Positions 13,000 through 59,100 of a stretch of 64,000 nucleotides of DNA are shown here, piece after piece. A program made the position numbers and the translations under genes. The DNA is from Mytilus galloprovincialis (taxonomy: Eukaryota), in the NCBI RefSeq assembly GCF_965363235.1, contig NC_134847.1, positions 69,846,935-69,910,934 of the forward strand, in the 5' to 3' direction. The notes beneath the pieces are model-generated. The model saw only the letters and a list, made by a program, of their open reading frames with translations, made no database searches and had not been told where the DNA came from. How positions within the stretch are numbered: position 1 is the stretch's first letter; each line of letters opens with the position of its first letter.

Positions 13000-13470
13000 A
13001 TCGTCCGAAGACACATTGGTTTTTGCACTTTAACTTTAGTTTAATTTAATAGAAATCTATTAAATTTAAACACAAGGTTAATTACCACAAAAGGAAGGTT
13101 GGGATTGATTTTGAGAGTTTTGGTCCCAACAGGTTAGGAATTAGGGGCGAAAAAAGGGCTCATTTAGGCATTTTTCGTGGTTTTCACACAATAATTTTAG
13201 TACAAGTTAATAGAAATCTATGAAATTCACACACAAGGTTTATGAACACAAAAGAAAGTTGGGATTGATTTAGGGAGTTTTGGTCCCAACAGTTTAGGAA
13301 TTAGGGGCCAAAAAGGGGCCCAATTAAGCATTTTTCTTGGTTTTCGCACCATAAATTTAGTATAAGTAAATAGAAATCTATGAAATTTAAATACAAGGTT
13401 TATTACCATAAAAGGAAGGTTGGGATTGATTTTGGGAGTTTTGGTCCCAACAGTTTAGTAATTAGGGGCC
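13000..13470. repeat. Tandem array of about 161 bp units (about 3 copies) in the left foldback arm
   Basis: The unit 'tagaaatctatgaaatt...ggttgggattgattttgggagttttggtcccaacag' has a period of 160-162 bp. Confidence 0.8.
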
Positions 13471-15639: not shown

Positions 15640-16200
15640 ATATAATAATTTTAGATCCTGATTTGGACCAACTTGAAAACTGGGCCCATAATCAAAAATC
15701 TAAGTACATGTTTAGATTCAGCATATCAAAGAGGCCCAAGAATTCAATTTTTGTTAAAATCAAACTTAGTTTAATTTTGGACCCTTTGGACTTTAATGTA
15801 GAATTTGAAATTTGAAAACAGGACCAAAAATGAAGAATCTACATACACAGTTAGATTTGGCATATCAAAGAACCCCAAGGATTCAATTTTTGATGAAATC
15901 AAACAAAGTTTAATTTTGGACCCTTTGGACCTTAATGAAGACCAATTTGAAAACTGGACCAAAAAAACTTCAATAATCAAGAATCTAAGTACATTTTTAG
16001 ATTCAACATATCAAAGAACCCAACCGATTCATTTTTTGTCAAAATCAAACTAAGTTTAATTTTGGACCCTTTGGACCTTAATGTAGACCGATTTGAAAAC
16101 GGGACCAAAAGTTGAGAATCTACATATACAGTTAGATTCGGCATATCAAAGAACCCCAATTATTCAATTTTGATGAAATCAAACAAAGTTTAATTTTGGA
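15640..16200. repeat. Tandem array of 120-140 bp units (4 copies) containing 'ttaattttggaccctttggac'; 2 copies lie at 13480-13720 in the opposite orientation
   Basis: The array is directly visible as periodic recurrence of 'ttggcatatcaaagaaccccaa...aattttggaccctttggac'. Confidence 0.75.
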
Positions 16201-16800
16201 CCCTTTGGGCCCCTTTTTCCTAAACTGTTGGGACCAAAACTCCCAAAATCAATACCAACCTTCCTTTTATGGTCATAAGCCTTGTGTTTAAATTTCATAG
16301 ATTTGTATTTACTTATACTAACATTATAGTGCGAAAACCAAGAAAAATGCTTATTTGGGTCCCTTTTTGGCCCCTAATTCCTAATCTGTTGGGTCCTAAA
16401 CTCCCAAAATAAATACCAACCTTCCTTTTGTGGTCATAAACATTGTGTTTAAATTTCATAGATTTCCATTTACTTAACCTAAGGTTATTGTGCAAAAACC
16501 AAGAAAAATGCTTATTTGGGCCCTTTATTGGCCCCTTATTCCTAAACTATTGAAACCAAAACTCCCAAAATCAATCCCAATCTTTCTTTTGTGGTCATAA
16601 ACCTTGTGTCAAAATTTCATAGATTTCTATTAACTTAAACTAAAGTTATGGTGCGAAAACCAAGAAAATGCTTATTTGGGCCCTTTTTGGCCCCTTATTC
16701 CTAAAATGTTGGGACCAAAACTCCCAAAATCAATACCAACCTTCCTTTTATGGTCATAAACCTTGTGTTAAAATTTCATAGATTTCTATTCACTTTTACT
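16200..16800. repeat. Tandem array of the same about 160 bp unit (about 4 copies, reverse complement) in the right arm
   Basis: The unit '...ctgttgggaccaaaactcccaaaatcaat.ccaaccttcctttt...' recurs at about 16240, 16400, 16560 and 16720. Confidence 0.8.
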
Positions 16801-16838
16801 AAAGTTAGAGTGCGAAAACTAAAAGTATTCGGACGCTG

Positions 16839-17765: not shown

Positions 17766-20700
17766 CTTATCAAGTCAAGCATAAGGGTAACAGGATAAAA
17801 GAAAATTGTCTGTCTGTATTATTATATTACGTTTAGATATACGATAAAGTAACATGTTTTTAAAGAAATAACTCTGTATATATAACATAAGGCTTAGGTA
17901 GTTCGAATACTTTCTATATACTCAATTCGAAATCTGTATATAGAATAAAACAGAACAGAATATTTCATTTTTCCAAATTAAAGGGTCTATAAAGAGCATA
18001 TTAAAAACCAGTGGTGGTGCGAACTACTGATGATACAATGTACCCCGCCCAAACATGCACTACATTATTCAAAAGAACTATTGTTTAACAATACAATCGT
18101 CAGTATCCCCATAATAGTAAAGTTTTTTTGTGTTAACATCGAGATGTGCTAGAAATGTGCTGAAAGAGTTCCTCCCTCAAATCATTATGAAGTAAGCATT
18201 CGATTGAAAAATGACGCTCATCCTCCACTCTATCAGCTGTACATTACGTTTGTCTGGCAGTTTTCAATTCTTAATGTAATGGGTGAGCACCGATTCTTAA
18301 GTAATATATGCACTACCTTTCTTAAAATCTACGGAAGCGTATTAGCGCCAAACATTTTTTAAATTTTTTCTTCCAATGTTTGCGTTACAACGCAAACCTT
18401 TGCGAAATAACGCAAACCTTTGTTTTAGCTTATTTCTTATTTAAGATTCAAAGGAAACAGTAGTTATTAATAGATTGCAAAGTAAAATCCTTGAATAATT
18501 AGATCATATATCATTGACTTCAATAATGAGCAAAATTATATAAGAAAATGTGGTATGAATGCCAATAAGAAAACTCTCTATCTAAGTCACTATTCCTAAA
18601 AGTAAACTATCATAGGCCAAAGTACGGTCTTCAACACGGAGCATTAGCTTACACTGAACAAGAAACTATAAAGGCCCCCAGAAACGATATCCTTGTTACT
18701 ACTAGTATATATACTATAAAGAAAATTGAGTAAATTGAGGTGATACGGAAGAACAAAAATCAACCCTGCTAATATAACTATAACCGAATATAAATATACT
18801 TCCAAAGTAAGCTCTCGTTTGAGAACTGTGTAAAGTAGTTTTGCAATAAATATATAGAATGAAGATGTTTTTATTAATAAAATCATATTCTATCTATTCA
18901 AATTGCTACCCAAGCATCTTAAAAAGAATACTTTATTATATTGAAATGAAAATTCAATGACTTTCTATCAAAGAATCTTGATCATATTCTGAGATTTAAA
19001 AAAATTATCCAATTTCAGAGTGGATGTTGCTATGGATAATATGTGTTTCCGTGGTAACAATTGAAGTCAACAACACTTGACGAATGTAATTTTAAGTTTG
19101 CGCTAGCTTTTATGTATTTTTTTTATCGGTTATAAAACAATTCAGGACATTTGAGCTCTTAAACTACAATATTCTGCAAATAAAAACTCCGTTTCCAAGG
19201 AAAAAATCGGTTGCTATGGTGACAAAACTAAAAAAAATCCCACGCATTTCACTATTTAATTTGATAAAGAAGTATCCAAACTTCATAACTACAGTGCTAA
19301 CTATTCTGTACACATTTGCACTTTTCTGAAAAACACTAGAGAAAATTTGATAATTCAGCAAAAATCCAAATTTCAGAAAAGTTGAAAATATGCATTTTTT
19401 CACAAAATTTTTCAAAAAATTTACAAATTTGGTTGACATGCAATCTTCACTAAAATGAAACTTAAACGATGTTCTATCTATGTTACATATGAAAATTAAT
19501 GAAAAATGCATGATTCTATTCATAATCAGGCTCTGAATTGTGGTGATTTAGCTGTTTTTTGACAGATTTTACCACGCTTAACAACCAAAAAATAGAGTGG
19601 CCGTTACCATGGCAACCACTCATATTTTCCCACTCAAAATTATTTTTTGAGCAGGATTCATTTATTGCTACTACTAGGCCAATTATAGAAAAAATCTGAA
19701 ACCATCATGTATCGCACTCTGCCTGGTTCTTACAAAGAGCTGTACTTAAATGATCCATGATAGCCAGCTCTATATATACAATGCAGAGTGACAAAGTTAA
19801 TTAGCACTGTTTGTTTAAAAGGGTACTCTTAGTCAGGTAGTTGTAAATAGGAATTTGCTTGCGTCTTTGTAAGATTAATTTGTCAGTTGTGATGTATGTT
19901 TACACAGTTTTGGATGCTGAATCCCAATTAATTTCAAATTATCTATTAAGTTTTTTTGGTTTTCTTATCTAATTTTGCCAATATAATGAAACTATAAACA
20001 ACAGAATTTCTAGTTGGAGGTTAGCGTTGTGCTTATATCTGCACAATATCCAAAAGAAAGGACTGAAACTGGGATTTTTTATAGCGTGTTGTTGGGTGTG
20101 AGCCAAGGCTCCGTGTTGAAGGCCGTACTTTGACCTATAATGGTTTACTTTTATAAATTGTGACTTGGATGAAAAGTTGTCTCACTGGCACTCATACAAC
20201 ATCTTCTTATAGCTATTTGTTGACAGGCAAAATGTTAATGACCAGAATAGAATAACGGTACCTTGACCTTGATCATATATCATGTATATTTCTAACATAT
20301 ATATATTGCTACTCACAACGCCGAAAAATCATTTAACAAACCATCAAAGTATTAATTATGAATAAATTGTACAAAACAATAATAGAATTACATACTTTAC
20401 CACGTAATATATCAGAGCTTTCATACTTAACGCGGTGACATTTTTATCAGTTTTCAGGGGCGGTTCCAGCCATTTTAAAAAGGGGGGTTCCCAACCCAGG
20501 ACAAAAGGGGGGGGTTCCAACTATATGTCCCCATTCAAATGCATTGATCGGCCAAAAAAAGGGGGGTTCCAACCCCCGGAACCCCCCCCCTTGGATCCGC
20601 CAATGGTTTTCTTTAGTTGCTGGATACTGGCAAAAGAAATGTCGATCGACTAATGAATAATAGTAAAAGTACAGGTATGGATTCGTCATGATGACAGTCT

Positions 20701-22699
20701 GTCAGAGGTTAAATTCAAGGTAATAAATATATAGATGAATTGACGATACATGTTCGTTCGAGAACTCGATGCGTCTGACTAGGGAGTTGTAGGTTCCCTG
20801 TCACAAGGCAACAGTATATTCAACCATTGTCAATATTTATATAGATAACAAAATCAATAAAACGGAATATTTCTGTTTAGCACAAGACAATAATAATCAC
20901 ATGGCAAAATCAAATAACCAAACGCATCAAAAACGAATGGACAAGAACTGTTATATTCCTGACTTGTACAGGCATTTTCAAATGTATAAAATGGTGGATT
21001 AAACCTGGTTTTATAGCGATAACCCTCTCACTTTGATGACAGTCTCATCAAATTCCGTAATATTTACATTGATGCGTAAACTAAACAGACACAATAAATA
21101 AAACAGTCAAAATATGGGCACATCAGTCATCATCGTATAACAATTTTAAAAGGAACAATTTAACAGAACACAAAAACATCTATCTACAAACACATTCATT
21201 GATTTGAGTGTCTGACGTCAGAAAATTTTATACGTCACATAAATTTGTCGTTCAATGTGCATACAATCAATTTTAAAATTTACAAAGGCAACGTAAGCAT
21301 ATAGGGTTAAAAAATCAAAAGTATGTAAGAATAAATTTCAGAAATAGACCGAGATTGAAAATAGTCCAAAAGTTATATATAGAATTTATAAGAATTCACA
21401 AATAGTAAATTCCACTACGCGATTGAATGATTTTGACGTTTATGGTTCAACGTATTTTGTAATTCATAATAGAAATATATCATAATGACATAAACTAGAA
21501 CAATATCATACTGACATACGGGATCTTTTGAAGTACAGAGTCACGTTATAAGAACCAAAGAAATACAAAATGTCGCATATACAAAGCACGACACCAAAAA
21601 TGGAAAGACAATACAAGCACATTGATGAGATGTACAAGTACCGAGACACGTCAAACGGAGATCACATCAAACCATTCACCAGTAAAAGTAATATTAATAA
21701 TAGAACAAAGACAAATGAAAGAACTATAAAACACGTTGTTAAGATGATAAACAACATCAGTACGCAGAATCTATACATCAAGACCATCGTGTATTATTTG
21801 TGACGTTGATACGGAATATTTATCAACAAGGTCTTGGTACCTTCCGATGAACTTTTTTTAGAAAAAGGACGAGACGTTCTTTGACATACACCTGGTTCAT
21901 TAACTTTCTACTCAGACACTGATGACGTTTTACAAAGTCTGAGTAGGAGCTGCAAGCTCTTGAATATCGAATAAGTTGGGAAATATATATCCCATATGCA
22001 GGTGAAGTTGGTATATTGCTACTAAGGTGGGGGAAATTTATAATTTCAAAATTAAAATCGTCTCGTTTGTAATAGATTCTGGTACTGAGATGACTGTGTT
22101 AGTCAAATTCGAGATATAAGTCTAAGAATGAATAAAGGCAACAGTAGTATACCGCTGTTCAAAACTCATAAATCTATGGACAAAAAACAAAATCGGGGTA
22201 ACAAACTAAAACCGAGGGAAACGCATTAAATATTAGAGGAGAATAACGACACAACATTAAATTGTAACACACACAGCAACGGACTAAGCATTAGACAAAA
22301 TCCGATGAGAATAACCAATATAACATCAAAACCAAAAACATGAATTTGGGATAGAAAAGTACTGTGACACGTCTTATAGTAATGTGAATTCATACTCAAA
22401 AATAGAAGAAAACAAACGACACAACGGGAAAAAATGAGGCAGAGGAAACCGTGTCTGTTGTTTCTTTAATCTCTAGTTCTGGGGGATATATTAATGGAAC
22501 CCAATCAGAAAAGTTCGGATTGTTTATGGAAAGAACATCATCAATATATCTGAAAGTGAAATTAAATAATCTGGCAATTTTACACAAATACCAAATTGAA
22601 ATCTACGCTGGCTATGGTTTGAAACCGTATTTGAAATTAAGTAGGGCGTCTATATAAAGTTAGGTCTTAATGAATTTATACAGAATCAAATGTGAATTA

Positions 22700-22990
22700 T
22701 CAACAAACATACTACATATTAGTCTGACTCGGAGGGCTCCCTGTGTTGTAATTGAAACTATTTCATAAAGCATTAACCATCAAGCATAATACATATTCGT
22801 CTAACTAGAAGGGCTTTCTGTGTTGTAATTTCGATACTATTTCATATAGCAATGACCATCAAGCATAATACATATTAGTCTGACTAGGAGGGCTTTCTGT
22901 GTTGTAATTTTGATACTATTTCATATAGCAATGACCATCAAGCATGATACATATTAGTCTGACTAGGAGGGCTTTCTGTGTTGTAATTTT
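22700..22990. repeat. Minisatellite of about 66 bp units, about 4 copies (about 2.5 copies at the paralogous site 50890-51050)
   Basis: The unit 'attagtctgactaggagggctttctgtgttgtaattttgatactatttcatatagcaatgaccatcaagcat.atacat' repeats head-to-tail. Confidence 0.8.
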
Positions 22991-23184
22991 GATACTATTA
23001 ATATAGCAATGACCGTATGATTCGACTTGTAAATTTAATTATATGCCTTATTCTGACTCAAAGCGGAGAGTATAATTGTGAAACGTCGAAGGCATACAAG
23101 CTTTTCTGTATAAAAAATTTCTGACTGGTTTGGTAATTAAATATCGATCAAACAATTTAAATTTTTAATGTGTTTATTCCATAT

Positions 23185-24500
23185 ATATATATATATGTGT
23201 AACACTCCCAAACGTGTCCTTCCCCCCAAACGTGTCCGATTCCCCCATACGTGTCTATTCTCCCCAAACGTGTCCATAATATTCAATATTCCCCAAACGT
23301 GTCCGATTTCAGAACCTCCAAACGTGCCCGATACTATTGTTATTCGCCCAAACGTGTCCACTTTTAAACGCCAGAACGTCTCGTGTCTTTTGCGCTAATA
23401 CATGTCCTAAACGCGACATCAATAACGTTCGCGGCAGTTCTATGATGGGGGACACAGTTGATAAAGTGGTAATTTATTAACATTAACTTGTTCAATGCCG
23501 GTTGTTAATGATTATCATTACTGAAAATTTAATATGTAACATATGCATTAACTTTTGACTTAATTTGCTTATTGTCCAGTTGCAAGTATTTCATACTCAT
23601 TTAAAGCGAACATACAAATAATTCTAGTACAGTTGAATTAATCGTTTACTATGTAAATTTTATACTAATAAACTCCGATGATGCCTTTTATATTAATCAG
23701 AATATTCCACGGTGGGCTTTCAGTCGAATTGAACTCCCATCTTTTTTTAACAGTTCTAATTTTAATAAATTTTAAGTTACGAGCGTCACTAAAGACACAC
23801 GAACAAGAGATATAACGTCCAGTGCCAAATATTTCATTCGTTATTTGAACGATATCATATTAACGATATATACTGTAGATAGGTTATATTATCAAACCGG
23901 GAATTTAAAATTGGGCATTAATTTTTACGGTTATTTGGGATGACCACTAGTTTGGATTTTAATCTAAAGAAAAATAAATGCGAGTAAAGACCGATTTGTT
24001 TATGACTTCAGTAAGAAACTACTTCAATGTCTGTTATGTAATATAGAGGCCGTTTCAAATAAAAGTTGTAGAAATTAAAAAAAAATTTGCCTTCCAAAAT
24101 ACAAAGTTTGGCACATTATAAAGAGTGAAATGCTACAAACATTTTAATGGGCATAGAAAAAGAATTTAAGTAATTTATGTTGATCTTTTAATGAAGTAGT
24201 AAAAGATCGTAAAATGAGTATACAATGATAGTAATAAAAAAAACACACACAAATAACCTACGTTTTTATAATATGAACACGAATGATAGTTCCAGTAAAA
24301 TAAAAAAAGCTTGGTATGGACACGTTTGGGGGATTGGACACGACTGGGGGTTTATTAAAAAATGGACACGTTTGAGCGTTTATACAAATGACACGCTTTG
24401 GTGCCATTTGACAACTAGACATGTCTTTGCAGTTCAGTGACGTCGATGTGGACACGTTTGGGGGAATCGGTCACGTTTGGGGGGTTACATATATACGATA
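23185..24500. mobile_element. Non-autonomous TIR/foldback-type element whose subterminal inverted arrays are built from the 12-mer CCAAACGTGTCC
   Basis: The left end (23195-23400) has at least 8 copies of CCAAACGTGTCC or variants. The right end (24300-24490) has the reverse complement, GGACACGTTTGG, multiple times. The termini are tatatatgtgtaacactccc and ggggggttacatatata. The roughly 900 bp AT-rich interior has no credible ORF. Confidence 0.6.
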
Positions 24501-25842
24501 CTTTTATAGTTTTTGGACATTATTATTGGACAGACATTTACTTGTGAAATATTAAAAAATGAATGATATTCAAAATTTAAACACTAACATGTCAAGAGAG
24601 GCAACTCAATTCTTTTTTTATATAAATTGTATAAGTTATAAACAGAAAAGATCTACTTAATCTCAGACACCAATAGCTACGGATATAAACAAAAAGAAAT
24701 CCGTTTTCCACTTTGTTCACATGGTCTGGGTAGGGCAGGGTTGATAACATACTAAGATAATTGTTTAGAAATGTGTGGCTGGGTAAAAATCACCCCCTTC
24801 GTATCTTGAAGTGTTGCGAAAAATGCAAAGACTATTTACAAATCTAACTCACAACTTGTGTTGACAGAGGGGACAAACAGTACTTGAAGGTCGTTGTCTA
24901 GCTGTGGTGGTTTCAAATCGAAAATAATATTATTGTGAAGACTAAAATTATAAACGTTCTTCTATTCAGTAATTGTGAGCATCAAAGAAACTCACAGGAA
25001 TGAAGAATTCACTAAAAAAAGTTTTCTATCTTTATCTATAAGTTATAAGCATAACTACATTTATAAGAGAAATTTAGGTTACATGCCAAGAAAATAATAC
25101 AGAAAACTGAAAATAATCCATTTAGAAAAGACAAATTGTTCTGCATTCCTGATCTGATATTACAAAGTTGTGATACAAATTACTGGATTAGTATATAAAA
25201 AAAAGTAAAATCATAAAAATACTGAACTCCGAGAAATATTCAAAGCGGAATGTCCCTAATTAAATGGCAAAATCAAAAGCTCAAACACATCAAACGAATT
25301 GACAACTACTGTCATATTCCTAACTTGGTTCAGGCATTTTCTTAGGTAAAAAGTGTGGGATTAAACCTTGTTTTATAGCTTGCTAAACGTCTCACTTAAC
25401 GCACGTAGACTTTGGGCTTTTTGATTCGTTAGCCATTCACATTGACAAATATCATAAAACAAGCATAGTTCATTTATAATTTCTAGGCTATCACATGAAC
25501 AATCTGTAAAATCTTAACAAGCCTTAGGACGTATATTGATTGATCTAAATGAGATATTAAGATTTAAATATCTAACTAACGTCATTCAAAGTTTCAACTG
25601 ATGATACTTATGAGTATTAATCATTCATATTTCCATGCCATTACTTAACAAAGATTTGTGAATACTATTACTAAATAGAATACTACATTGTAACCCCTTA
25701 AGGATATACTTTGAATAAATAAACACATGATTACGGTGACATTATCGATCAAGATAACAGGATGATTGGTTGATGATAAAAGAGTGTTTTCCATACGATC
25801 AGGGTTTGTGAACGACAATCTGATTTTATTTGCTTCTTTTGG

Positions 25843-25866
25843 TTTTTTTTTTTTTTTTTTTTTTTT
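25843..25866. repeat. T24 homopolymer, present in duplication copy A only (the copy B site at about 56390 reads ggttttcttttaaaggaggagg)
   Basis: It is directly visible. Confidence 0.9.
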
Positions 25867-28800
25867 GGACGGATTTAGGAACTGAATAAAGAGTATTTTG
25901 ACCTGATAGATATTTTGCCCCAAATAAAAGACAGGATAACTGAATAATTTGCATTTGGATAACATTGGGTTTTTTTCATCGTAAACCTGTGCAATTTGCT
26001 TATTTACTAAATATTTTGTTTAGTATAAGTTCTTTTTCAAAATCTGTCAACATTCTTGTACAACTGACCTTTGAGGAAAATACGGATGTGTCATTATTTG
26101 AATTTTGGTGTCCTGCTTAGTGCCACGTAAGTTCTACTATTTGCAATAGACAAATAAGGAATAGGTCCGTTGATTTTCTTGAAAATTATGCTCAAAGTTC
26201 TAACATGACCTCAAACTGCATGACCCAACCCCAAAAATACCAAATATCGTATCAATATAAACATCTTTACAATTACACAAATCTTACAAATTTCTGTTTA
26301 GATAGAAAATATAATGTAGATTGATATAACAACACCTTTAGTTGTTGGTTTGATTTCAGATTTATCTTAATATTTTAAATGTATTTGATATTTGTTTGCT
26401 ATAATATAACTCATGAAACTCCTTTTGTATCTAGAAAGTGCCTATACTAAACTATAACTCTACCTATCATAATAATAATGGCTGCATAAATAAATAACTC
26501 TGTAATGGAATCAATATTTTTTTACATTTAAGTAGGTAGCGGTAAAATGTATTTTTTAACTGGTCCACTTGGAAACGGGATTTTTAATAAAGATTACAAT
26601 GGAACATCAAACACGTTCATATCTATATCATTATAATCAATGTTTTGCATTTACAGTGTTTGTGATGTCGAAATATCAGTGGTATTAACAAATGCCACAA
26701 AGTGTGAAGACGTCCACTACAAAACGATCAACTACAATACAATAGATCAATTTTTTATGCAGTTGGCATTCTTCTAATGTAGTTAATAATATCGTTTTAT
26801 AAGTGACAAAAGGCAAAAGTCAAGATCGTACGTTTAACATGTTATAACTTAAGTAATAAGAAAAGAGTAAATAAACTCATCATAGATACAAGGATTAAAA
26901 TTTTGTATTAACGCCTGACGCGCGTTTCGTCTACAAAAGATTCATCAGTGACTCTCGAATAAAAAAATTGAAAACGCCAAATAAAGTATGAAGTTTAAAA
27001 GCATTGAGGACCAACAATTCGTTAAAGTTTTTCCCAAATACAGTTAAGGTTATCTATTCTTGAGGTAGAAAAGCCTTAATATTAAATACTCAAAGTTTTG
27101 TAAACAGATAATTTATAATAATAACCATATCAATCATAATTTATGTCAACACTTAAGTGCTGACTCCTTGGCTGGTGATACCATCGGGGACTAAAAACTC
27201 CACCGATTTTTTAATAACTAAGGAACATGTCATCATTTGTCACTACAGAACATTGATATATCAACATAAATGCTATTGTAATGTAGTTGACAAATTTATG
27301 TTATCTCATTTTGCATTTGAAATTATCTTCGCACAAGACTGCATATTAAAGACTTTGTTCATATAAACTACTGTGAGTTCAGTAGAATATTAAAAATATA
27401 GTTTAACTAATACAAATGAACTATGAATGGATTTTGAAAACGACCCATTATTTATTTATTTGAAACAAAATATGGAAAGATGATTTCAATGCATATTATG
27501 TTTCTCCTTTTATATTCCCTTATTATTAAAATATAAATCCCCGAAAGAAAAGTTAATATGATTTTAGAACTTGATGCTTCAGAAATTTAACATTAAAGAT
27601 CAGAAATTTTGTTCTTCTGGTCCTACATAATTAAGGCTATGTTTTCATGCGAAAAATTTCATGTCAAAAGAAAAATGTTAACTTTACATTGGCAGCAGAG
27701 CTGGAAAGATCTCTAAAACAAGATACCGCTGTAAAGTCCATGTGAAACATTGTTACATTTTACTGATTGTTTTCAGGTTCTGTCCTCTATTATTAATATA
27801 AGTCATTATCGTTTGACGACTTTGTCAATAAAAATGTTGATTATTCAAAAGCATTAGACAGATAAAGAATACCTTCATATAAGTTGTTTATGGAATTCAT
27901 TAACGCAGAACTAGACGACCATAAGAATTTGGGGACACCAAAATTAATAAGATAAATAAGATAAATTCTGTCATAAAGATATTATGAAATGCATGTAAGC
28001 AACATACACATTTTCCATCTTAGCATTTAAACAATCACAAACATATCAAAGAATAAACCCACCTGATGTTGAAATGTAGTAAATAAAAATTTGAAATATG
28101 TAACATATTCTTTATTCTCAATATCATTTCGCAATGAATAAATCTGAATATAAAATACACAACAAAGTTTTGCAGTTTATTTCTAATGATATAATCTTTA
28201 TATGCTCTACAATTTCGACGTGTGGTGAACGACTCTTACAAAAAGAACCGCATGATAAAGAGTTTTGGAAAAGTGCCATCACGACATTTATCTTCACTTA
28301 CAATAAGTATAAATCTTTCCTTTTCGAGACAGTGAACCAAAAAAAAAAATGAATATCTTCTGTACTTTCGTTTAACCTATATCTTTGATATTATATATAC
28401 ACCATACTTACTGGAACACTACAGAATTCAATTTAACTTAGGCTCTTATCATTCATAATTTGGAAGGAGGATTTCGGTTGTTTTTTTTAGGAGAATGACT
28501 TCAATAAATACTAACTAACAAACAGGAACAGGTTATGTGTTTTGATATTCAATGATGTATTTCTCCCCTCAACCTTTTATGTGTAAGGGGGCTCGCGGGT
28601 CTAAATCAATTTTTTTTTTCTAATATAGGATTTCGCTATATTTTTCTATAAATGAACTTTATCTTATACCTAAAAGAAAAATAAAATAAAAAATTGGGGT
28701 CACCGTTCATTTACGCTCACAATCTGCATTCGAAAGAAGCATACATTTTTTGTAAAGGTACTTTTTTTCTGTAGAACTATTAGCAGAAATAGAGGTAATA

Positions 28801-47952: not shown

Positions 47953-49871
47953 CTATTTACAATAAATAAAATTTCTACGTCTTTTAAAAATCAAATGACA
48001 GGTTTTGGCACACACACGTATCATATTTACATCTGAGAATAAAAACACTAACTTTTGATTATCATCTAAAGTATTAAAATTATCATTAAAAGTTTCAGCA
48101 ACATAATATAAATGGTTTCTAAAATCGTCATACAGAGGACATTTTAATAAAACATGCGCTTCATCGTCAATAAAAACGTCACATATATGGCACATTCTAT
48201 TTTCTAAAACAATATTTTCATATCTCCCTGTTTCAATTCTTAGGGGAGCAACACCATATCTAAATTTGGCGAAAGCACTTCTGTGACTGAAGGGTAAAGC
48301 TATTTTACAATATTCCTCCGATTCAAAATTTTCCTTAAACAGTCTGTAAGTTCGTAGCTTATTGCCACCTCTGTCGGATATAGATTTATCTAAATGTAAA
48401 ACACCATGCCAATTATCGACATGTTTTTCGTGTAATTTTGACATAATTTTTTTTATAACATAGTTAGTGTCCATATTTTCAGGACACGATAAATGACTTA
48501 AATTTAGTTTACTATTAGCCCACTTGTGAACTTTTGCATTTAACCGATTTAAGCTCATGTTATTTAATCTACACCACAAACGAATAATACTTTTCCACTG
48601 CTTATCAAAAATAGGTGTTATACCTAAGTCTCCAGTAACTGCAGCATTTGGTGCATATTTTCCTACTCCGAGAAAAAATCTACAAGCCCTAGTATGTATG
48701 GAGTTAATACAAGAATATGTTTTTACACCCCATATACCTGCTCCATATTCTATTATAGGACAAACCAAACTTTCATATAATTTTACAAATACATCGAAAC
48801 AAACACCACCTAAAAGTTTACATTTGGCTATTACCAACCCTAAAGCTCTATTTGCCGAAGATGCAACGGCTTTTGCAGTAACATTATAGTCTAAATGCTC
48901 GTTTAAAACGAGACCAAGATAAGTATAATTACTAGAAAAATTAATAGTATGACCATTACAATTAAAAATTACATCAGATCTAGGTATAGATGGCGGTCTA
49001 AAATGTACAACGTTACTCTTGTTTACATTAATTGTCATACATTGTTTTCACACCATGTAGATAAAGCATTTAACAGAAGTTGAAGCTCTTTTTCATCGTT
49101 TGCTATAATTACAACGTCATCAGCATATAATAAAATACACAGTTTTTCATCACCTATTTCTATTCCGCAGTCAAAGGACTTAAGAAATGTAACTAAATCA
49201 TTAATATACAAGTTGAACAAAATGGGCGACAAGGGACATCCTTGTTTCAAGCCACAGTTAACATCAAACCAGTCTGTGAAATGACCGTTTATTCTTACAG
49301 AACATAAAACATTTGTATAAATTGACTTAATAGCAGAACAAAAAGGCTGTGCAACACCCATGTTATTCAATTTATACCACAAAATATCCCTTTGTATAGT
49401 GTCGTAAGCCTTTTTAAAATCTATAAAGGCGCAAAATGTTGATTTACGAAGTTTTTTTCTTACATCTATCAAATTAGTAAGACTAGATAATTGGTCAATT
49501 GTACTACTTTGTTGCCGGAAACCATTCTGCTCGTCAGCCAGTACATTGTTATCATCTACCCATTGAGCTAATCTATCGCTCAGTATATTACAATACAATT
49601 TGTAAGACACGGCTGCCAGGGCGATCCCTCTATAACAAAGGGGGTCTCTCGGGTCCGACATGTTAGATTTAGGAATAGGATTTATAATAATTCTATTCCA
49701 TAAATCTGGAACATTACCATATCTAAAACAAATATCTTTGGTATCACCTCGGAGGTTCTTACGAGTTACCGGTCCTTGGTATGGTGACATGAAATTTTGA
49801 ACGAGAAAAAAATGTGAAAAAGGTGAAAAACATCTAATTTTGAGATATGTAAAAGATTGAAAATAGTCCAA
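47953..49871 (-). mobile_element. 5'-truncated non-LTR (LINE) retrotransposon, CR1/L2-like RT, minus strand
   Basis: ORF 49035-49871 carries RT domains (FRQQSSTIDQL, CAFIDFKKAYDTI, GLKQGCPLSPILFNLYINDL, LLYADDVVII). The abutting ORF 47953-49038 carries the RT thumb and a C-terminal Cys/His motif (CHICDVFIDDEAHVLLKCPLY). The two ORFs overlap by 4 nt, indicating a frameshift. No endonuclease domain lies upstream of the RT, which indicates 5' truncation. Confidence 0.75.
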
Positions 49872-51214
49872 AAGTTATATATAGAATTTATAAGAATCCA
49901 CAAATAGTAAATTCCACTACGCGATTGAATGATTTTGACGTTTATGGTTCAACGTATTTTGTAATTCATAATAGAAATATATCATAATGACATAAACTGG
50001 AACAATATCATACTGACGGGATCTTTTGAAGTACAGAGTCACGTTATAAGAACCAAAGAAATACAAAAAGTCGCATATACAAAGCACGACACCAAAAATT
50101 GAAAGACAATACAAACACATTGACGAGATGTACAAGTACCGAGCCACGCCAAACGGATATCACATAAAACCATTCAACAGTAAAAGTAATATTAATAATA
50201 GAACAAAGACAAATGAAAGAACTATAAAACACGTTGTTAAGATGATAAACAACATCAGTACGCAGAATCTATACATCAAGACCATCGTGTATTATTTGTG
50301 AAGTTGATACGGAATATTTATCAACAAGGTCTTGGTACCTTCCGATGAACTTTTTTAGAAAAAGGACGAGACGTTCTTTGACATACCCCTGGTTCATTAA
50401 CTTTCTACTCAGACACTGATGACGTTTTACAAAGTCTGAGTAGGAGCTGCAAGCTCTTTAATATCGAATAAGTTGGGAAATATATATCACATATGCAGGT
50501 AAAGTTGGTATATTGCTACTAAGGTGGGGGAAATTTATAATTTCAAAATTAAAATCGTCTCGTTTGTAATAGATTCTGGTACTGAGATGACTGTTTAAGT
50601 CAAATTCGAGATATAAGTCTAAAAATGAGGCGGAGGAAGCCGTGTCTGTTGTTTCTTTAATATCTAGTTCTGGGGGATATATTTATGGAACCTAATCAGA
50701 AAAGTTCGGATTGTTTATGGAAAGAACATCATCAATATATCTGAAAGTGAAATTAAATAATCTGGCAATTTTACACAAATACCAAATTGAAATCTACGCT
50801 GGCTATGGTTTGAAACCGTATTTGAAATTAAGTAGGGCGTCTATATAAAGTTAGGTCTTAATGGATTTATACAGAATCAAATGTGAATTATCAACGAACA
50901 TACTACATATTAGTCTGACTCGGAGGGCTCCCTGTGTTGTAATTTTGAAACTATTTCATAAAGCATTAACCATCAAGCATAATACATATTAGTCTAACTA
51001 GAAGGGCTTTCTGTGTTGTAATTTTGATACTATTAATATAGCAATGACCATATGATCGACTTGTAAATTTAATTGTATGCCTTATTCTGACTCAAAGCGG
51101 AGAGTATAATTGTGAAACGTCGAAGGCATACAAGCTATTCTGTTTAAAAAATGTCTAACTGGTTTGGTATTTAAATATCGATCAAACAATTTAAATTTTT
51201 AATGTGTTTATTCC

Positions 51215-52527
51215 ATATATATATATATATGTGTGTAACACTCCCAAACGTGTCCTTCCCCCCAAACGTGTCCGATTCCCCCATACGTGTCTATTCTCAC
51301 CAAACGTGTCCATAATATTCAATATTCCCCAAACGTGTCCGATTTCAGAACCCCAAACGTGCCCGATACTATTGTTATTCGCCCAAACGTGTCCACTTTT
51401 AAACGCCAGAACGTCTCGTGTCTTTTGCGCTAATACATGTCCTAAACGCGACATCAATAACGTTCACGGCAGTTCTATGATGGGGACACAGGTGATGAAG
51501 TGGTAATTTATTAACATTAACTTGTTCAATGCCGGTTGTTAATGATTATCATTACTGAAATTTAACATATGCATTAACTTTTGACTTAATTTGCTTATTG
51601 TCCAGTTGCAAGTATTTCATACTCATTTAAAGCGAACATACAAATAATTCTAGTATAGTTGAATTAATCGTTTACTATGTAAATTCTTTTATACTAATAA
51701 GCTCCGATGATGCCTTTTATATTAATCAGAATATTCCACGGTGGGCTCTCAGTCGAATTGACCTCCCATCTTTTTTTAACAGTTCTAATTTTAATAAATT
51801 TTAGGTTACGAGCGTCACTAAAGACACACGAACAAGAGAAATAACGTCCAGTGCCAAATATTTCATTCGTTTTTTGAACGATATCATATTAACGATATAT
51901 ACTGTAAATAGGTTATATTATCAAACCGGGAATTTAAAATTGGGCATTAATTTTTACGGTTATTTGGGATGACCACTAGTTTGGATTTTAATCTAAAGAA
52001 AAATAAATGCGAGTAAAGACCGATTTGTTTATGACTTCAGTAAGAAACTACTTCAATGTCTGTTATGTAATATAGAGGCCGTTTCAAATAAAAGTTGTAG
52101 AAATTAAAAAAAAAATTTGCCTTCCAAAATACAAAGTATGGCACATTATAACGAGTGAAATGCTACAAACATTTTAATGGGCATAGAAAAAGAATTTAAG
52201 TAATTTATTTTGATCTTTTAATGAAATAGTAAAAGATCATAAAATGAGTATACAATGATAATAATAAAAAAAAAACACAAATAACCTACGTTTTTATAAT
52301 ATGGACACGAATGATAGTTTCAGTAAAATAAAAAAAAGCTTGGTATCGACACGTTTGGGGGATTGGACACGACTGGGGGTTTATTAAAAAATGGACACGT
52401 TTGAGCCTTTATACAAATGACACGCTTTGGCGCCCTTTGACAACTAGACATGTCTTTGCAGTTCAGTGACGTCGATGTGGACACGTTTGGGGGAATCAGA
52501 CACGTTTGGGGGGTTACATATATACGA
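51215..52527. mobile_element. Second copy of the CCAAACGTGTCC-array element (within segmental duplication B)
   Basis: It has the same termini and 12-mer arrays as 23185-24500. Confidence 0.6.
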
Positions 52528-54400
52528 TACTTTTAGAGTTTTTGGACATTATTAATGGACAGACATTTACTTGTGAAATATTAAAAAATGAATGATATTC
52601 AAAATTTAAACACTAACATGTCAAGAGAGGCAACTCAATTCTTTTTTTATATAAATTGTATAAGTTATAAACAGAAAAGATCTACTTAATCTCAGACACC
52701 AATAGCTGCGGATATGAACAAAACTAAATCCGTTTTCCACTATGTTCACAGGGTCTGGGTAGGGCAGGGTTGATAACATACTAAGATAATTGTTTAGAGA
52801 TGTGTGGCTGGGTAAAAATCACCCCCTTCGTATCTTGAAGTGTTGCGAAAGATGCAAAGACTATTTACAAATCTAACTCACAACTTGTGTTGACAGAGGG
52901 GACAAACAGTACTTGAAGGTCGTTGTCTAGGTGTGGTGGTTTCAAATCGAAGATAATATTATTGTGAAGAGTAAAATTATAAAGGTTCTTCTATTCAGTA
53001 ATTGTGAGCATCAAAGAATCTCACAGGGATGAAGCATTCACTAAAAAAAAGATAATTTTGCCTTGAATTCTATCTTTATCTATAAGTTATAAGCTTAACT
53101 ACATTTATAAGACAACTTTAGGTTACATGCCAAGAAAATAATACAGACAACTTAAAATAATCAATTTAGAAAAGACAAATTGTTCTGCATTCCTGATCTG
53201 ATATTACACAGTAGTGATACAAATTACTGGGTTAGTATATATAGAAAAAAGTAAAATTATAAAAATACTGAAATCCGAGGAAAATTCAAAGCATAGAAAA
53301 AGAATTTAAGTAATTTATTTAATTTATTTTGATCTTTTAATGAAATAGTAAAAGATCGTAAAATGAGTATACAATGATAATAATAAAAAAAAACCACAAA
53401 TAACCTACGTTTTTATAATATGAACACGAATGATAGTTCAAGTAAAATAAAAAAAAAGCTTGGTATGGACACGTTTGGGGGATTGGACACGACTGGGGGT
53501 TTATTAAAAAATGGACACGTTTGAGCCTTTATACAAATGACACGCTTTGGCGCCCTTTGACAACTAGACATGTCTTTGCAGTTCAGTGACGTCGATGTGG
53601 ACACGTTTGGGGGAATCAGACACGTTTGGGGGGTTACATATATACGATACTTTTAGAGTTTTTGGACATTATTAATGGACAGACATTTACTTGTGAAATA
53701 TTAAAAAATGAATGATATTCAAAATTTAAACACTAACATGTCAAGAGAGGCAACTCAATTCTTTTTTTATATAAATTGTATAAGTTATAAACAGAAAAGA
53801 TCTACTTAATCTCAGACACCAATAGCTGCGGATATGAACAAAACTAAATCCGTTTTCCACTATGTTCACAGGGTCTGGGTAGGGCAGGGTTGATAACATA
53901 CTAAGATAATTGTTTAGAGATGTGTGGCTGGGTAAAAATCACCCCCTTCGTATCTTGAAGTGTTGCGAAAGATGCAAAGACTATTTACAAATCTAACACA
54001 CAACTTGTGTTGACAGAGGGGACAAACAGTACTTGAAGGTCGTTGTCTAGGTGTGGTGGTTTCAAATCGAAGATAATATTATTGTGAAGAGTAAAATTAT
54101 AAAGGTTCTTCTATTCAGTAATTGTGAGCATCAAAGAATCTCACAGGGATGAAGCATTCACTAAAAAAAGATAATTTTGCCTTGAATTCTATCTTTATCT
54201 ATAAGTTATAAGCTTAACTACATTTATAAGAGAACTTTAGGTTACATGCCAAGAAAATAATACAGACAACTTAAAATAATCTATTTAGAAAAGACAAATT
54301 GTTCTGCATTCCTGATCTGATATTACAAAGTTGTGATACAAATTACTGGGTTAGTATATATAGAAAAAAGTAAAATTATAAAAATACTGAAATCCGAGGA
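52183..54400 (+). repeat. Local tandem duplication, 2 copies of about 1.1 kb (52183-53290 and 53291-54400), present only in copy B
   Basis: The sequence from 'atagaaaaagaatttaagtaattta' to 'ggaaaattcaaagc' occurs twice head-to-tail, so the right GGACACGTTTGG array appears at both 52340-52520 and 53460-53650. Copy A has one unit. Confidence 0.8.
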
Positions 54401-54682
54401 AAATTCAAAGCGGAAAGTCCCTAATCAAATGGCAAAATCAAAAGCTCAAACACATCAAACGAATGGACAACTTCCTAACTTTGTTCAGGCATTTTCTTAG
54501 GTAGAAAATGTGGGATTAAACCTTGTTTTATAGCTTGCTAAATGCCTCACTTAACGCGCGTAGACTTTGGGCTTTTTGTTTCGTTAGCCATTCACATTGA
54601 CAAATATCATTAAAAAATAATAATTCATTTATACATTTCTAGGCTATCACATGAACAATCTGTGAAATCTTAACAAGCCTTA

Positions 54683-56096
54683 AGCCCCAGTCCCACTAGA
54701 CCACGATCGCACCACGCTCACCGCGATCTAAAATAAATTTAGATCGTGGTGAGGTCGCGGTATGAGCTGCATGAAAATGTAAATTTTCTTTGCTTTCACG
54801 ATGCTACTACGTCCTCTCTACGCTTCTACAAAGATCCCGCTACGATTATACCACGTTCTCACCGCGCTTATTCTGCGACCTCACTACGCTTATCAAGATC
54901 TTTCTACGCTCTTCACGTTCTCATTACGACCATACCACGAGTTATCCGATTGCAACACGATCTTACTGCGATTATAACACGTTCTTTCCACGATTATACT
55001 ACGTTCATAGCGCGATCTTACTACGTTCTCAGCAATAACGTCAACATCGTGTTCCATATCAATACAGTTCAATTCCATCTATTTCTGATTAAATCGTAGA
55101 TTCTCGGAAACATACAGTCATGCCACCAAAATCTACAAAACACCTGGGCATGGTGGTAGGAGTTGATGTAGAGGCAGAGGGAGCAAAGTAACGAATCCTG
55201 ATCTAGCAGAGATGTCGGACCGACCAATACAACCTAAATTACAACCTATTACTGGTCCATAAAGCTCAATGACGATATTTTAGTGAACGATAGCAGAGAT
55301 GATATATATAGGAAGATGTGGTATGAGTGCCAATGAGACAACTCTCCATCCAAGAAACAATTTATAAAAGTAAACCATTATAGGCCAAGGTTCGGCCTTC
55401 AACACGGAGCCTTGGCTCATAATCAATCAACACGTTATAAAGGACCCAACATATTACTAGTGTTAAACCATTTCAACGGGAAAACCAACGGTCTAATTTA
55501 TATAAAAACGAGAAGCATGGTTGAGCAGTTAGAGCAAATGGATAATTACATTCAAAGAAACAAAATCTAGGAGCTTTTTTATATATTTTATGTGAAAATG
55601 ACAATGAGAATGATGATCGTAGTGTGAACGTAGTCAGGTCGTAAGAAGAGCGTGATGAGGACAGCAAGGGCGTGCTAGAATCGTACAATGGTCGTGAACA
55701 GCGTGGTATAGTCGTAGTGGAAGCGTAGTTGGGTCGCAGTGAGAACGAGATGGTCGTAGTGAGGTCGTGATAACGTCGCTGTGAAATCGTAGCGCAGTAT
55801 CTCCGAATAGAATCATACTTTCGCTACGCTCTCGATACGATTGTACAGCGACCTTTGCGATCTTACTACGATCTTAGTGCGCTCTCACTACGCTTCTACT
55901 ACGACCTGATTTCGCCACGACCGCACCACGATTGTTTTGAACATGTTCAAAGTTGGCCACGCTCTTCACGATCTTGAAGACCTCACCACGACCGTGATAC
56001 GACCTTACTGCGATCTACACGATCGCACTACGATCATCAAAACTTGCATTTTTTTCACAGATTGTAGTGCGATTGTGGCCTAGTGGGACTGGGGTA
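54683..56096. mobile_element. 1.4 kb non-autonomous TIR element with TTA target-site duplication (PIF/Harbinger-like), whose interior is made of inverted CTACG/CGTAG short-repeat arrays
   Basis: It has roughly 30 bp imperfect TIRs (left AGCCCCAGTCCCACTAGACCACGATCGCAC, right GTGCGATTGTGGCCTAGTGGGACTGGGGTA). It is flanked by TTA on both sides (54680-82 and 56097-99). The orthologous site in copy A (about 25521-25528, ccTTAggacg) is uninterrupted with a single TTA. The interior 54720-55060 holds arrays of about 20 bp CTACG-containing repeats, and 55620-56060 holds their reverse complement. Confidence 0.75.
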
Positions 56097-58212
56097 TTAG
56101 GACGTGTATTGATTGATCTAAATGAGATATTAAGATTTAAATATCTAACTAACGTCATTCATAGTTTAAACTGATGATACTTATGATTATTAATCATTCA
56201 TATTTCAAATACTATTACTAAATAGAATACTACACTGTAATCCCTTAAGGATATACTTTGAATAAATAAACACATGATTACGGTGACATTATCGATCAAG
56301 ATAACAGGATGATCGGTTGATGATTAAAGAGTGTTTTTCATACGATCGGGGTTTGTGAACCACAATCTGATTTTATTTGCTTCTTTTGGTTTTCTTTTAA
56401 AGGAGGAGGGGTTTAGGAACTGAATAAAGAATATTTTGACCTGATAGATATTTTGCCCCCCCCCCCAAAAAAAACGGGATAACTGAATAATTTGCATCTA
56501 TTATATAGGATAACATTGGTTTTTTTTTTCATCGCAAACCTGTGCAATTTGCTTATTTACTAAATATTTCGTTTAGTTTAAGTTCTTTTTCAAAATCTGT
56601 CAACATTCTTGTACAACTGACCTGTGAGGAAAATACGGATGTGTCATTACTTGAATTTTGGTGTCCTGCTTAGTGCCACGTAAGTTCTACTATTTGCAAT
56701 AGACAAACAAGGAATAGGTCAGTTGATTTTCTTTAAAATTATGCTCAAAGCTCAAACATGACCTCAAACTGCATGACCCAACCCCAAAAATACCAAATAT
56801 CGTATCAATATAAACATCTTTACAATTACACAAATCTTACAAATTTCTGTTTAGATAGAAAATATAATGTAGATTGATATAATAAAACCTTCTATCATTT
56901 ATGGGTAGACTTTACATAGATAAATTCAGCCGTATTTGACGTGAAACTGTACTTATGTGTCCCGTCATACTTTGAACCACACCATTATTTTATTTATTAT
57001 TTTTATTGTAAGTCTGTTTTTTGTTATATCTACTTTACATGAGTCTGCATTTATGTATGCCGTCATACGACAAAATTATTTTTATGTCTACCTGTGCGAA
57101 TTTCAAACGCGCAATTTTACACCAGTAATGAAAACCTTCTTTCATTTATGGGTAGACTTTACATAGATAAATTCAGCCGTATAAGAAAAGCAAAATGAGA
57201 ATGTTAAATTTGATGTATGCCTTTTTGTGCTACTTTGTTACATTTGTTGTTTATGTAGTGATATTAAGATGATAACACAATATTGACTGTTGTACCCCTA
57301 TTTTTGACATTTTTACTCTTTGAGTATGTTTGTTTTGTTCATGCATCGTTGACAATGTAATGGAATTTGATGCGACTGTCATACAAGTGAGAGGTTTAGC
57401 TAGCTATAAAACCAGGTTCAATCCACCATTTTCTACATTAGAAAATGCCTGTACCAAGTCAGGAATATGACAGTTGTTATCCATTCGTTTGATGTGTTTG
57501 GACTTTTGATTTTGCCTTTTGATTTTTGATTTTCCTTTTTGAATTTTCCTCGGAGTTCAGTATTTTTGTGTTTTTACTTTTTAGTTGCTGGTTTTGGTTT
57601 CAGATTTATCTTAATGTTTTGAGTGTATTTGATATTTGTTTGCTATAATATAACCCATGAAACTCATTTTGTATCTAGAAAGTGCCTATACTAAACTATA
57701 ACTCTACATATCATAATAATAATGAGTGCATAAATAGATAACTCTGTAATGGAATCAATATTTTTTGGCATTTAAGTAGGTAGCGGTAAAATGTATTTTT
57801 TTACTGGTCCACTTGGAAACGGGATTTTTTATAAAGATTACAATGGAACATCAAACACGTTCATATCTATATCATTATAACCAATGTTTTGCATTTACAG
57901 TGTGTGTGATGTCGAAATATCAGTGGTATTAATAAATGCCACAAAGTATGAATACGTCCACTACAAAACGATCAACTACATAACAATAGATTTAATTTAT
58001 TTATGCAGTTGGCATTCTTCTAATGTAGTTAATAATATCGTTTTAAAAGTGACAAAAGGCAAAAGTCAAAATCGTACGTTTAACATGTTATAACTTACGT
58101 AATAAGAAAAGAGTAAATAAACTCATCATAGATACCAGGATTAAAATTTTGTATTAACGCCAGACGCGCGTTTCGTCTACAAAAGACTCATCAGTGACTC
58201 TCGAATACAAAA

Positions 58213-59100
58213 AATTGAATGCTTTTTCATATGTTTTCAGTTGGATTTAAATAATGAGAACTGGCACCTTACGCGAGGAGAAATTCTCACTATAGTAGAG
58301 GGGTCTGTAGAAGCTGAACTTAGGGAACGGTCACCCCTCCCCTTACCACATAGCTTCAAAACTTTGACCCCCAAACAAAAATCCCTATCGGTTGCCGTCA
58401 GTGAAATTTGTTTTTATTGGACCAGTGGAATAACCTGTCTCTTGACTGTCAGATTTAACAGGTGAAGGCAAGGACTCCCAGGTCGGAATGCTTTTTCACA
58501 TGTTTTCAGTTGGATTTAAATAATGAGAACTGGAACCTTACGCGAGGAGAAATTCTCACTATAGTAGAGGGGTCTGTTGAAGCTAAACTTAGGGAACGGT
58601 CATTGTTTATCAGCTGAGGGGTATATATGTTCAAATTTATTGAACCCCCCCCCCCCCCCCCAAAAAAAAAACATTATGAACCACATAATGACCCCCCTCC
58701 CCTTACCACATAGCTTCAAAACTTTGACCCCCAAACAAAAATCCCTATCGATTGCCGTCAGTGAAATTTGTTTTTAGTCGACCAGTGGAATAACCTGTCT
58801 CTTGACTGTCAGATTTAACAGGTGAAGGCAAGGACTCCCAGGTCGGAATGCTTTTTCATATGTTTTCAGTCGGATTCAATAATGAGAACTGGAACCTTAC
58901 GCGAGGAGAAATTCTCACTAAGTAGAGGGGTATCTAGAAGCTAAACCTAGGGAACGGTCTTTGTTTATCAGCTGAAGGGTATGTTCAAAATTTTCACCAC
59001 ATAATGACCCCCTACTCTTAACACATAGCTTCAAAACTTTGACCCCAAACAAAAATCCCTATCGATTGTAAAAAGAAATTCTCACTATAGTAGGACATTT
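58213..59100. repeat. Tandem repeat of 270-360 bp units, about 3 copies
   Basis: Units begin 'ggaatgctttttcatatgttttcagttggatttaaataatgagaactgg' at about 58215, 58487 and 58848. The second unit carries a C17A10 homopolymer insert. ORFs 58241-58465 and 58577-58777 are artefacts of this repeat. Confidence 0.8.

Follow-up and report, generated by a model that had tools for sequence, protein, structure and literature searches.

The repeat-bordered feature of the 64-kb window (the whole stretch of Mytilus galloprovincialis DNA that was analysed, 64,000 nucleotides) is very probably a non-autonomous cut-and-paste DNA transposon of about 1.3 kb with terminal inverted repeats (TIRs). As expected of this structural class, it possesses TIRs, lacks coding capacity and recurs in unrelated surroundings with sharply defined limits; its length of 1.29 kb exceeds that of a typical MITE. 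The family is real and was mobile, with members elsewhere in DNA of related marine invertebrates. Its termini and target sites point to the superfamily Ginger2/TDD, an assignment given about an even chance of being correct.

Structure of the element

The complete copy (copy 1) extends from TGTAAC to GTTACA, and homology with sequences outside the window begins exactly at TGTAAC (Table 1). If an extra TG that directly precedes TGTAAC is counted as part of the element, the left boundary shifts to 23196. The TIR is imperfect and 40–41 nt long, with positions 1–40 of copy 1 being 85% complementary to positions 1292–1253, and the left TIR was 95% identical to the terminus of a related end recovered from a marine metagenome (L012). 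The inverted termini described in the earlier note were therefore borne out, as was a non-coding core, which had been put at roughly 900 bp and measured approximately 950 bp. The longest stop-to-stop frame in the core was 64 amino acids, a Pfam search of the core gave no match of any weight, and an Rfam search of the element gave no match.

The 12-mer CCAAACGTGTCC occurred 24 times in the window with at most one mismatch, compared to 0.13 occurrences expected from dinucleotide shuffles, and all 24 matches were confined to the intervals 23208–24480, 51244–52509 and 53467–53629, inside the three stretches that the earlier note had named. The true repeat unit is approximately 13–14 nt, CC(C)AAACGTGTCC, and includes the sequence ACGTG. 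When up to three mismatches were allowed, copy 1 contained seven motif copies on the plus strand between 23208 and 23359, six on the minus strand between 24318 and 24480 (five good and one degenerate) and a single degenerate inverted copy at 23450, while the rate away from the element stretches was 0.38 per kb. The earlier counts of at least eight copies on the left and at least six on the right are reached only when degenerate variants are included.

The motif copies are direct within one end and inverted between the ends, and the layouts of the two arrays are asymmetric. Start-to-start spacing in the left array was 18, 19, 19, 29, 25 and 30 nt, compared to 19, 86, 28 and 18 nt in the right array when read inward from the right end. 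Within the 86-nt gap of the right array lies a unique block that reads ACATCGACGTCACTGAACTGCAAAG in the inward direction and is well conserved in L012. Both arrays lie within about 165 bp of their respective ends, each accounting for about 13% of the element. Inverted motif similarity reaches over these 165 bp in a non-collinear manner, and contiguous pairing is restricted to 34–41 nt. In a test for purifying selection on the motif sites, five independent left ends gave a mean pairwise identity of 0.745 for motif columns and 0.681 for spacer columns, a marginal difference (p = 0.07) that does not establish such selection.

By analogy with Ac/Ds (hAT), En/Spm (CACTA) and P, in which short motifs occupy the subterminal 150–250 bp, direct at each end and inverted between asymmetric ends, the motif copies are probably transposase binding sites, with CCCAAACGTGTCC as the candidate sequence. 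The earlier interpretation of the arrays as transposase-binding architecture thus holds for the general arrangement, but the hAT, Mutator and CACTA elements that it named as models do not fit on termini or duplication lengths: neither a CACTA terminus with 3 bp nor a YARNG terminus with 8 bp is found here.

Table 1. Positions of features in the window, and related element ends from outside it. Flanks are read inward to TGTAAC.
Feature	Location	Strand	Description	Flank
(TA)n microsatellite	23179..23197	.	ends in TG, directly left of copy 1; insertion target; flank comparison	
Element copy 1, complete	23198..24489	+	1292 bp; TGTAAC...GTTACA; outside homology begins at TGTAAC	left ..atatata(tg); right ..cgtatata
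Left TIR	23198..23237	+	~40 bp; includes the first two motif copies; complementarity to 24450-24489, 85% across 41 nt	
Left subterminal array	23205..23362	+	7 direct CC(C)AAACGTGTCC; motif scan; array conserved in L024, L025, L026	
Core	23363..24315	.	non-coding, AT-rich, ~950 bp; only islands conserved in L012	
Right subterminal array	24316..24484	-	inverted motif, five good copies and a degenerate one; motif scan; motif positions conserved in L012	
Right TIR	24450..24489	-	complementarity to left TIR	
Putative TATA/TA duplication, right copy	24490..24493		TATA; left copy inside the (TA)n microsatellite	
Element copy 2	51234..52518	+	1285 bp; 96.5% identical to copy 1; paralogue via segmental duplication; both flanks homologous	
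Partial copy 3	53308..53638	+	right-hand ~330-350 bp of element; opening part of 1.1-kb tandem duplicate	
Segmental duplication block A	21352..26972	.	self-BLAST; 89-97% identity, collinear pieces	
Segmental duplication block B	49854..58219	.	self-BLAST; direct orientation, ~28.5 kb from block A	
Blocks A and B, piece 1	21352-22131 and 49854-50628		96.9% identity	
Blocks A and B, piece 2	22430-22859 and 50621-51051		97.0% identity	
Blocks A and B, piece 3	22864-25246 (holds copy 1) and 50899-53292 (holds copy 2)		95.4% identity	
Blocks A and B, piece 4	25524-26338 and 56097-56891		89.3% identity	
Blocks A and B, piece 5	26337-26972 and 57580-58219		94.8% identity	
L012	marine metagenome ORXM01085539, 1069-bp contig, 33% GC		right-end type; 83% over 185 bp	..aacatata
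L024	ENA ERZ6864376, 10.9 kb		element positions 1-831; 90% over 808 bp	..gaatata(tg)
L025	ENA ERZ6864376		element positions 1-498, left-end type; 83% over 507 bp	..gtcaata
L026	Logan SRR29152241		element positions 1-150; 82%	..gtttata
L027	ENA ERZ27264458		more divergent relative; same terminus and motif	..cgtatata

Duplication of the locus

A second copy, placed by the earlier note at 51215–52527, was confirmed with slightly narrower limits, and a third, partial copy follows it. Copies 1 and 2 lie in the two blocks of a segmental duplication, the second of which is interrupted by insertions and by a tandem duplicate of 1.1 kb. In this tandem duplication the segment 52190–53292 is repeated at 53308–54411 with 98.6% identity, while the corresponding segment is single in the paralogue that carries copy 1. 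Since copies 1 and 2 share homologous flanks on both sides, they represent one insertion that was passively copied by segmental duplication, and the three occurrences in the window reflect duplication of the locus, not transposition. The two blocks bracket a mucin-like open reading frame at 36510–45695, and it is because of the segmental duplication that copies are found on both sides of it, some 12 kb away upstream and some 5.5 kb away downstream.

The right-hand array had also been described as duplicated again at 53460–53650, which was taken as a sign that the arrays are recombinogenic. An array is present at 53467–53629, but as part of the tandem duplicate, which begins inside the element's unique core and extends about 770 bp into the flank, and not as an array alone. 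The extra array is a passenger, as the duplication junctions fall in the unique core and the flank and none falls in an array, and the proposal of recombinogenic arrays is not upheld.

Relatives outside the window

As both full copies are contained within the segmental duplication, the evidence for mobility comes solely from sequences outside the window. Five further element ends were obtained from a marine metagenome, ENA and Logan contigs, with 82–90% identity over the aligned stretches (Table 1). The flanks of all five were unrelated to those of the window and to one another, and homology started exactly at TGTAAC; these unrelated flanks and the sharp boundary show that the family was mobile. 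The possibility that the two copies are just part of the segmental duplication and belong to no mobile family, which the earlier note had allowed for, therefore applies to both full window copies but does not account for the five outside ends. All outside copies are incomplete, each being cut by the end of its contig.

The metagenomic end was identified using a pattern scan for two motif copies 4–22 nt apart, which returned 21 loci of which one was related (L012). This end showed 95% identity across the terminal 40 nt and conserved internal islands, next to an unrelated flank. Most of the 20 unrelated loci were 10/21-bp tandem arrays that came chiefly from a single sample set; the others were GC-rich contigs, L002 among them. 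The remaining four ends came from protein searches, in which an 88-amino acid spurious open reading frame (window 51191–51457, minus strand) was compared with 1.84 billion representative proteins and a small profile was compared with a set of 5.8 billion proteins, the latter adding P0127 only. Four proteins were obtained, all of them translations of other element copies, and their contigs are L024–L027. Gene callers sometimes call spurious open reading frames across such motif arrays.

A 1166-amino acid concatenation of all reading frames of the element gave no match in the set of 5.8 billion proteins, and exact look-ups of the window open reading frames found nothing on record. The motif pattern gave no matches in viral contigs and one unrelated Burkholderiaceae site in prokaryotic genomes, and a literature search for the motif string returned primer sequences only, while one for the sample accessions gave nothing.

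Additional interspersed repeats, 72–82% identical, are common to the window and the contigs L024 and L025, indicating that these derive from related genomes. L012 and L025 were considered as the two halves of one copy, which would have yielded a target duplication, and this was rejected, as their 106-bp overlap is just 93% identical and the element does not resume in L025 after a shared palindromic insert of about 245 bp. Reverse-transcriptase fragments are also present in the window; their best matches were to Mercenaria, Mya and clam DNA that contaminates symbiont MAGs (about 50%) and to a Tara metagenome scaffold (75%), and they indicate a mollusc, probably a bivalve.

Target site and superfamily assignment

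Seven independent ends, two from the window and five from outside, all in TA-rich sites, were available for comparison of the flanks. With the extra TG counted as element, the flank at the terminus read ATA in all seven ends, TATA in six and A-TATA in five, the two exceptions in this small sample being one T-TATA and one C-AATA. The extra TG was restricted to the pair of left ends that are most closely related and is expanded to TGTG in copy 2 of the window; it thus resembles a segment of that subfamily's terminus that is prone to slippage. Since these two ends have TG in place of TA before TGTAAC, placing the boundary involves an assumption.

The only complete copy from which a target duplication could be read is embedded in a (TA)n microsatellite; duplications of 2, 4 and 6 bp (TA, TATA and TATATA) all match perfectly there and fit equally well. 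For a 4-bp duplication, taking TGTGTAAC as the left terminus gives TATA/TATA (4/4), and the match is otherwise TATG/TATA (3/4); for a 2-bp duplication it is TA/TA (2/2) with TG as element and TG/TA (1/2) otherwise, both values being read within the microsatellite. When TG is assigned to the flank an 8-bp duplication matches at seven of eight positions, and lengths of 3, 5, 7 and 9 bp fail completely. The failure of the 3- and 9-bp lengths excludes CACTA and PIF (3 bp) as well as Mutator and Foldback (9 bp).

On their termini, CACTA, ISL2EU and PIF are excluded as well, and hAT and P do not fit. CACTA/En-Spm was rejected on the TGTAAC terminus, which is neither CACTA nor CACTG, and on 3-bp flanks that match at 0/3, and hAT on the start TGTAA in place of YARNG and on an 8-bp duplication that reaches 7/8 under one boundary only. 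PIF/Harbinger and ISL2EU elements have a TWA or AT duplication and a TIR starting with G or A, usually GG (PMC4482050); here the TIR starts with TG and the 3-bp duplication matches at 0/3.

The published signature of Ginger2 comprises TGTNR termini, TIRs of 45–300 bp, a 4-bp target-site duplication (5 bp in TDD-4 and TDD-5) and the preferred target RTATAY (PMC2836005). The 5'-TGTNR...YNACA-3' terminus is represented by TGTAAC...GTTACA in window copies 1–3, L012 and L024–L027, and the RTATAY target by A-TATA in five of the seven independent ends, which is a small sample. The contiguous TIR of 40–41 bp at 85% stands at the low end of a range that begins at about 45 bp and extends to 300 bp. Ginger2 occurs in molluscs, including the snail Littorina (PMC2836005), and Ginger elements have been recorded in bivalves (PMC10294476). 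The element resembles Ginger2/TDD, including non-autonomous derivatives such as Ginger2-1N1_NV (Bao, Kapitonov and Jurka 2010), in its TGTNR (TGTAA) termini, its A-TATA ends and its occurrence in marine invertebrates and molluscs, and differs in the short contiguous TIR and in the five to seven subterminal copies of a 13-nt motif.

An autonomous Ginger2/TDD partner would share the termini and encode an integrase-like transposase, with an H2C2 zinc finger and a DDE domain. No transposase was found in any sequence examined (the window and the fetched loci), and no autonomous copy was found among them. Five Ginger2 transposase cores from the supplement of PMC2836005, compared by tblastn with the window and the 27 loci, gave no match.

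PMC2836005 makes no mention of subterminal motif arrays in Ginger2, nor does that paper describe an end architecture of five to seven subterminal sites. It is decidedly unlikely that the element represents something new in this respect, either as a Ginger2-type transposon with hAT/CACTA-style arrays of five to seven subterminal sites recognised by a sequence-specific DNA-binding domain or as an undescribed superfamily with TGT..ACA ends. It is very probably an ordinary non-autonomous TIR transposon family, and it may already stand in repeat libraries.

Alternative classes

A non-autonomous Tc1/mariner (ITm) element with a TA duplication, in which the motif would represent expanded multiple sites of the IR/DR type, is unlikely but has several observations in its favour. 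TA directly adjoins TGTAAC in five of the seven ends, or in all seven with TG as element, and the 2-bp duplication of the complete copy is perfect. Some Tc1-like elements favour targets resembling ATATATAT. Further similarities with Tc1/mariner IR/DR elements and MITEs are the TA at the ends, the repeated transposase sites in long inverted ends and abundance in bivalves, where TcMar is the richest superfamily of DNA transposons with 41% of elements (PMC10294476). However, the conservation of the flanks continues beyond TA as far as TATA, with A at position -3 in all seven ends and T at position -4 in six. The TGTAAC terminus is atypical of Tc1/mariner/pogo, and each end of an IR/DR element carries two sites in place of the five to seven seen here.

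Alternatively, the TA next to TGTAAC could belong to the element itself, giving an IS3EU/GingerRoot-type transposon with TA..TA termini and a 6-bp duplication, for which the chance is slim. IS3EU elements always have TA..TA termini and usually 6-bp duplications, and the termini of GingerRoot are occasionally TG..CA (PMC10045372). In keeping with this, TGTAAC is preceded by TA in all ends but two left ones, which have TG instead. With TA..TA boundaries, however, the 6-bp flanks are TATATA and TATACG and match at only four of six positions, an objection weakened by the instability of the microsatellite, and the conservation at positions -3 and -4 is left unexplained.

It is very unlikely that the element belongs to hAT, P or a similar group with an 8-bp duplication, in which TATATACG would be the duplicated target and its left copy would have decayed to TATATATG by a CpG to TpG change; this comes near the hAT comparison drawn in the earlier note. 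The match at seven of eight positions with TG as flank agrees with this, the single mismatch being C to T at a CpG, and hAT and P elements do have subterminal transposase-binding repeats. Against it, hAT termini are YARNG and P termini begin CATG, neither of which fits TGTAA; the flanks do not follow the hAT target pattern nTnnnnAn, an invariant ATA at every end would be unexpected for hAT or P, and in copy 2 the 8-bp duplication matches at 6/8 only.

The feature might instead be a cis-regulatory module of the host, in which clustered sites bind an ACGTG-recognising factor and which was duplicated with the locus and is not mobile. The earlier note's suggestion that the motif could act as a clustered factor-binding site at the mucin gene found no support. 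The ACGTG inside the motif and the segmental duplication, which explains both full window copies, are compatible with such a module. It is extremely unlikely in view of the five further ends in unrelated flanks, where homology stops sharply at TGTAAC, the presence of a TIR and a target-site signature, and the distances of 12 kb and 5.5 kb between the copies and the mucin-like open reading frame.

The probability is negligible that this is a Foldback or Mutator-like element proper, in which long terminal arrays fold back and the duplication is 9 bp: inverted short-repeat arrays are present at both ends as in Drosophila Foldback (FB), but FB arrays are long and tandem, form most of the element and are accompanied by a 9-bp duplication, whereas here the 9-bp flanks match at 0–1 of 9 positions, the arrays are short (about 165 of 1292 bp), irregular and non-collinear with a longest inverted match of 34–41 nt, and the unique core dominates, so that the label "foldback-type" used in the earlier note is not retained.

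Proposed mechanism and implications

An autonomous relative would supply the transposase in trans, and the motif copies would be its binding sites. The transposase may bind several of these sites, bring the two ends together, cut the element out and integrate it in TA-rich DNA, with the multiple sites helping the paired-end complex to assemble. The differing layouts of the left and right arrays, including the 86-nt gap with its conserved block at the right end, could allow the two ends to be told apart, following the multi-site and asymmetric-end logic known from Ac/Ds, En/Spm and P. At this locus a single insertion, into the (TA)n microsatellite, underlies all three occurrences: copy 2 arose by the segmental duplication and the partial copy 3 by the 1.1-kb tandem duplication.

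In annotations the element is best masked with other DNA transposons instead of being taken for a regulatory cluster of the adjacent mucin-like gene, and its three occurrences in the window should be read as a record of the duplication history of the locus, not of transposon activity. If the assignment to Ginger2 is true, the family would provide a convenient case for the study of end recognition by integrase-like transposases, with a candidate motif of 13 nt repeated five to seven times at each end.

Sequence context of the element copies

The two element copies in the window lie in the halves of a direct segmental duplication, which share 89–97% identity and are separated by ~28.5 kb. Block B contains additional insertions and a 1.1-kb tandem duplicate. 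A 79-bp unit repeated in four tandem copies is located ~180 bp upstream of the left end of the first element copy, and these units were also found in the paralogous block. The duplication blocks bracket a single Thr/Ser-rich open reading frame of 3061 amino acids, which is made up of 18.8 copies of a 363-bp (121-residue) unit with pairwise identities of 75–95% and looks like a mucin-like tandem-repeat exon.

Elsewhere in the window, a 740-bp inverted duplication with 92% identity between its arms encloses tandem arrays of 139–161-bp units, which likewise occur in inverted orientation. Together the arms and arrays form a large palindromic satellite-like structure.

The window also holds a reverse-transcriptase fragment of a non-LTR retrotransposon. 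It is interrupted by a frameshift, and its top relatives (~50%) were bivalve proteins from Mercenaria and Mya, together with clam DNA that has been mis-binned into metagenome-assembled genomes of Candidatus Thiodiazotropha; the Tara metagenome scaffold L023 matched the fragment at 75%. Three successive open reading frames of 300, 209 and 139 residues gave no significant match to Pfam. These contain an LPKLHK-type motif and look like a decayed retroelement polymerase.

Positions of repeats and coding regions in the window and in other contigs
Feature	Sequence	Positions	Strand	Remarks
Inverted 740-bp arms	window	12008–12746, 19021–19750
Arrays of 139–161-bp units	window	13017–13474, 15673–16208, 16195–16819
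Duplication block A	window	21352–26972
Duplication block B	window	49854–58219		tandem duplicate 53308–54411
79-bp unit	window	22704–23014
Three open reading frames	window	30866–33210	+
Mucin-like open reading frame	window	36510–45695	+	repeats 38792–45561
Reverse-transcriptase fragment	window	47953–49871	-	RVT_1, E = 5.5e-36
Interspersed repeat	window	20889–21136, 25200–25397, 35571–35787, 46411–46661, 54365–54552, 57385–57582
Interspersed repeat	L024	6576–6886
Interspersed repeat	L025	1058–1166
Palindromic insert	L025	243–487		481–725 of inward-reading copy
Palindromic insert	L012	~962–1069
Opposed repeat sets	L002	310–530
10/21-bp arrays	L003, L004, L007, L009, L010, L014, L015, L017, L018, L021			Ga0302xxx contigs

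Related and look-alike sequences in other contigs

Two kinds of metagenome locus carry the motif or a close variant of it and are unrelated to the element. In L002 (Ga0207712_10399769), a GC-rich contig (GC 0.56) that is probably bacterial, three overlapping GGACACGTT(T)GG repeats face three CAAACG(T/C)GTCC repeats across ~150 bp, an inverted iteron- or operator-like arrangement of nearly the same motif. The Ga0302xxx contigs, which derive from one metagenome sample set, contain long tandem arrays that include CCAAACGTGTCC with a 10/21-bp period; these are a minisatellite.

Incomplete copies of the element itself are present in the marine metagenome contig L012 and in the ERZ6864376 contigs L024 and L025. 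At element position ~498–503 both L025 and L012 carry a palindromic insert of ~245 bp with arms starting TTACAGCTRATTTCCTAATGC, which is a nested MITE common to one subfamily of the element. Beyond this insert L025 does not return to element sequence; a deletion or chimeric assembly of the contig may be the cause. An interspersed repeat of ~200–250 bp occurs at least six times in the window and was found as well in L024 and L025, which come from related genomes; it probably represents a SINE or MITE family belonging to this one group of genomes.
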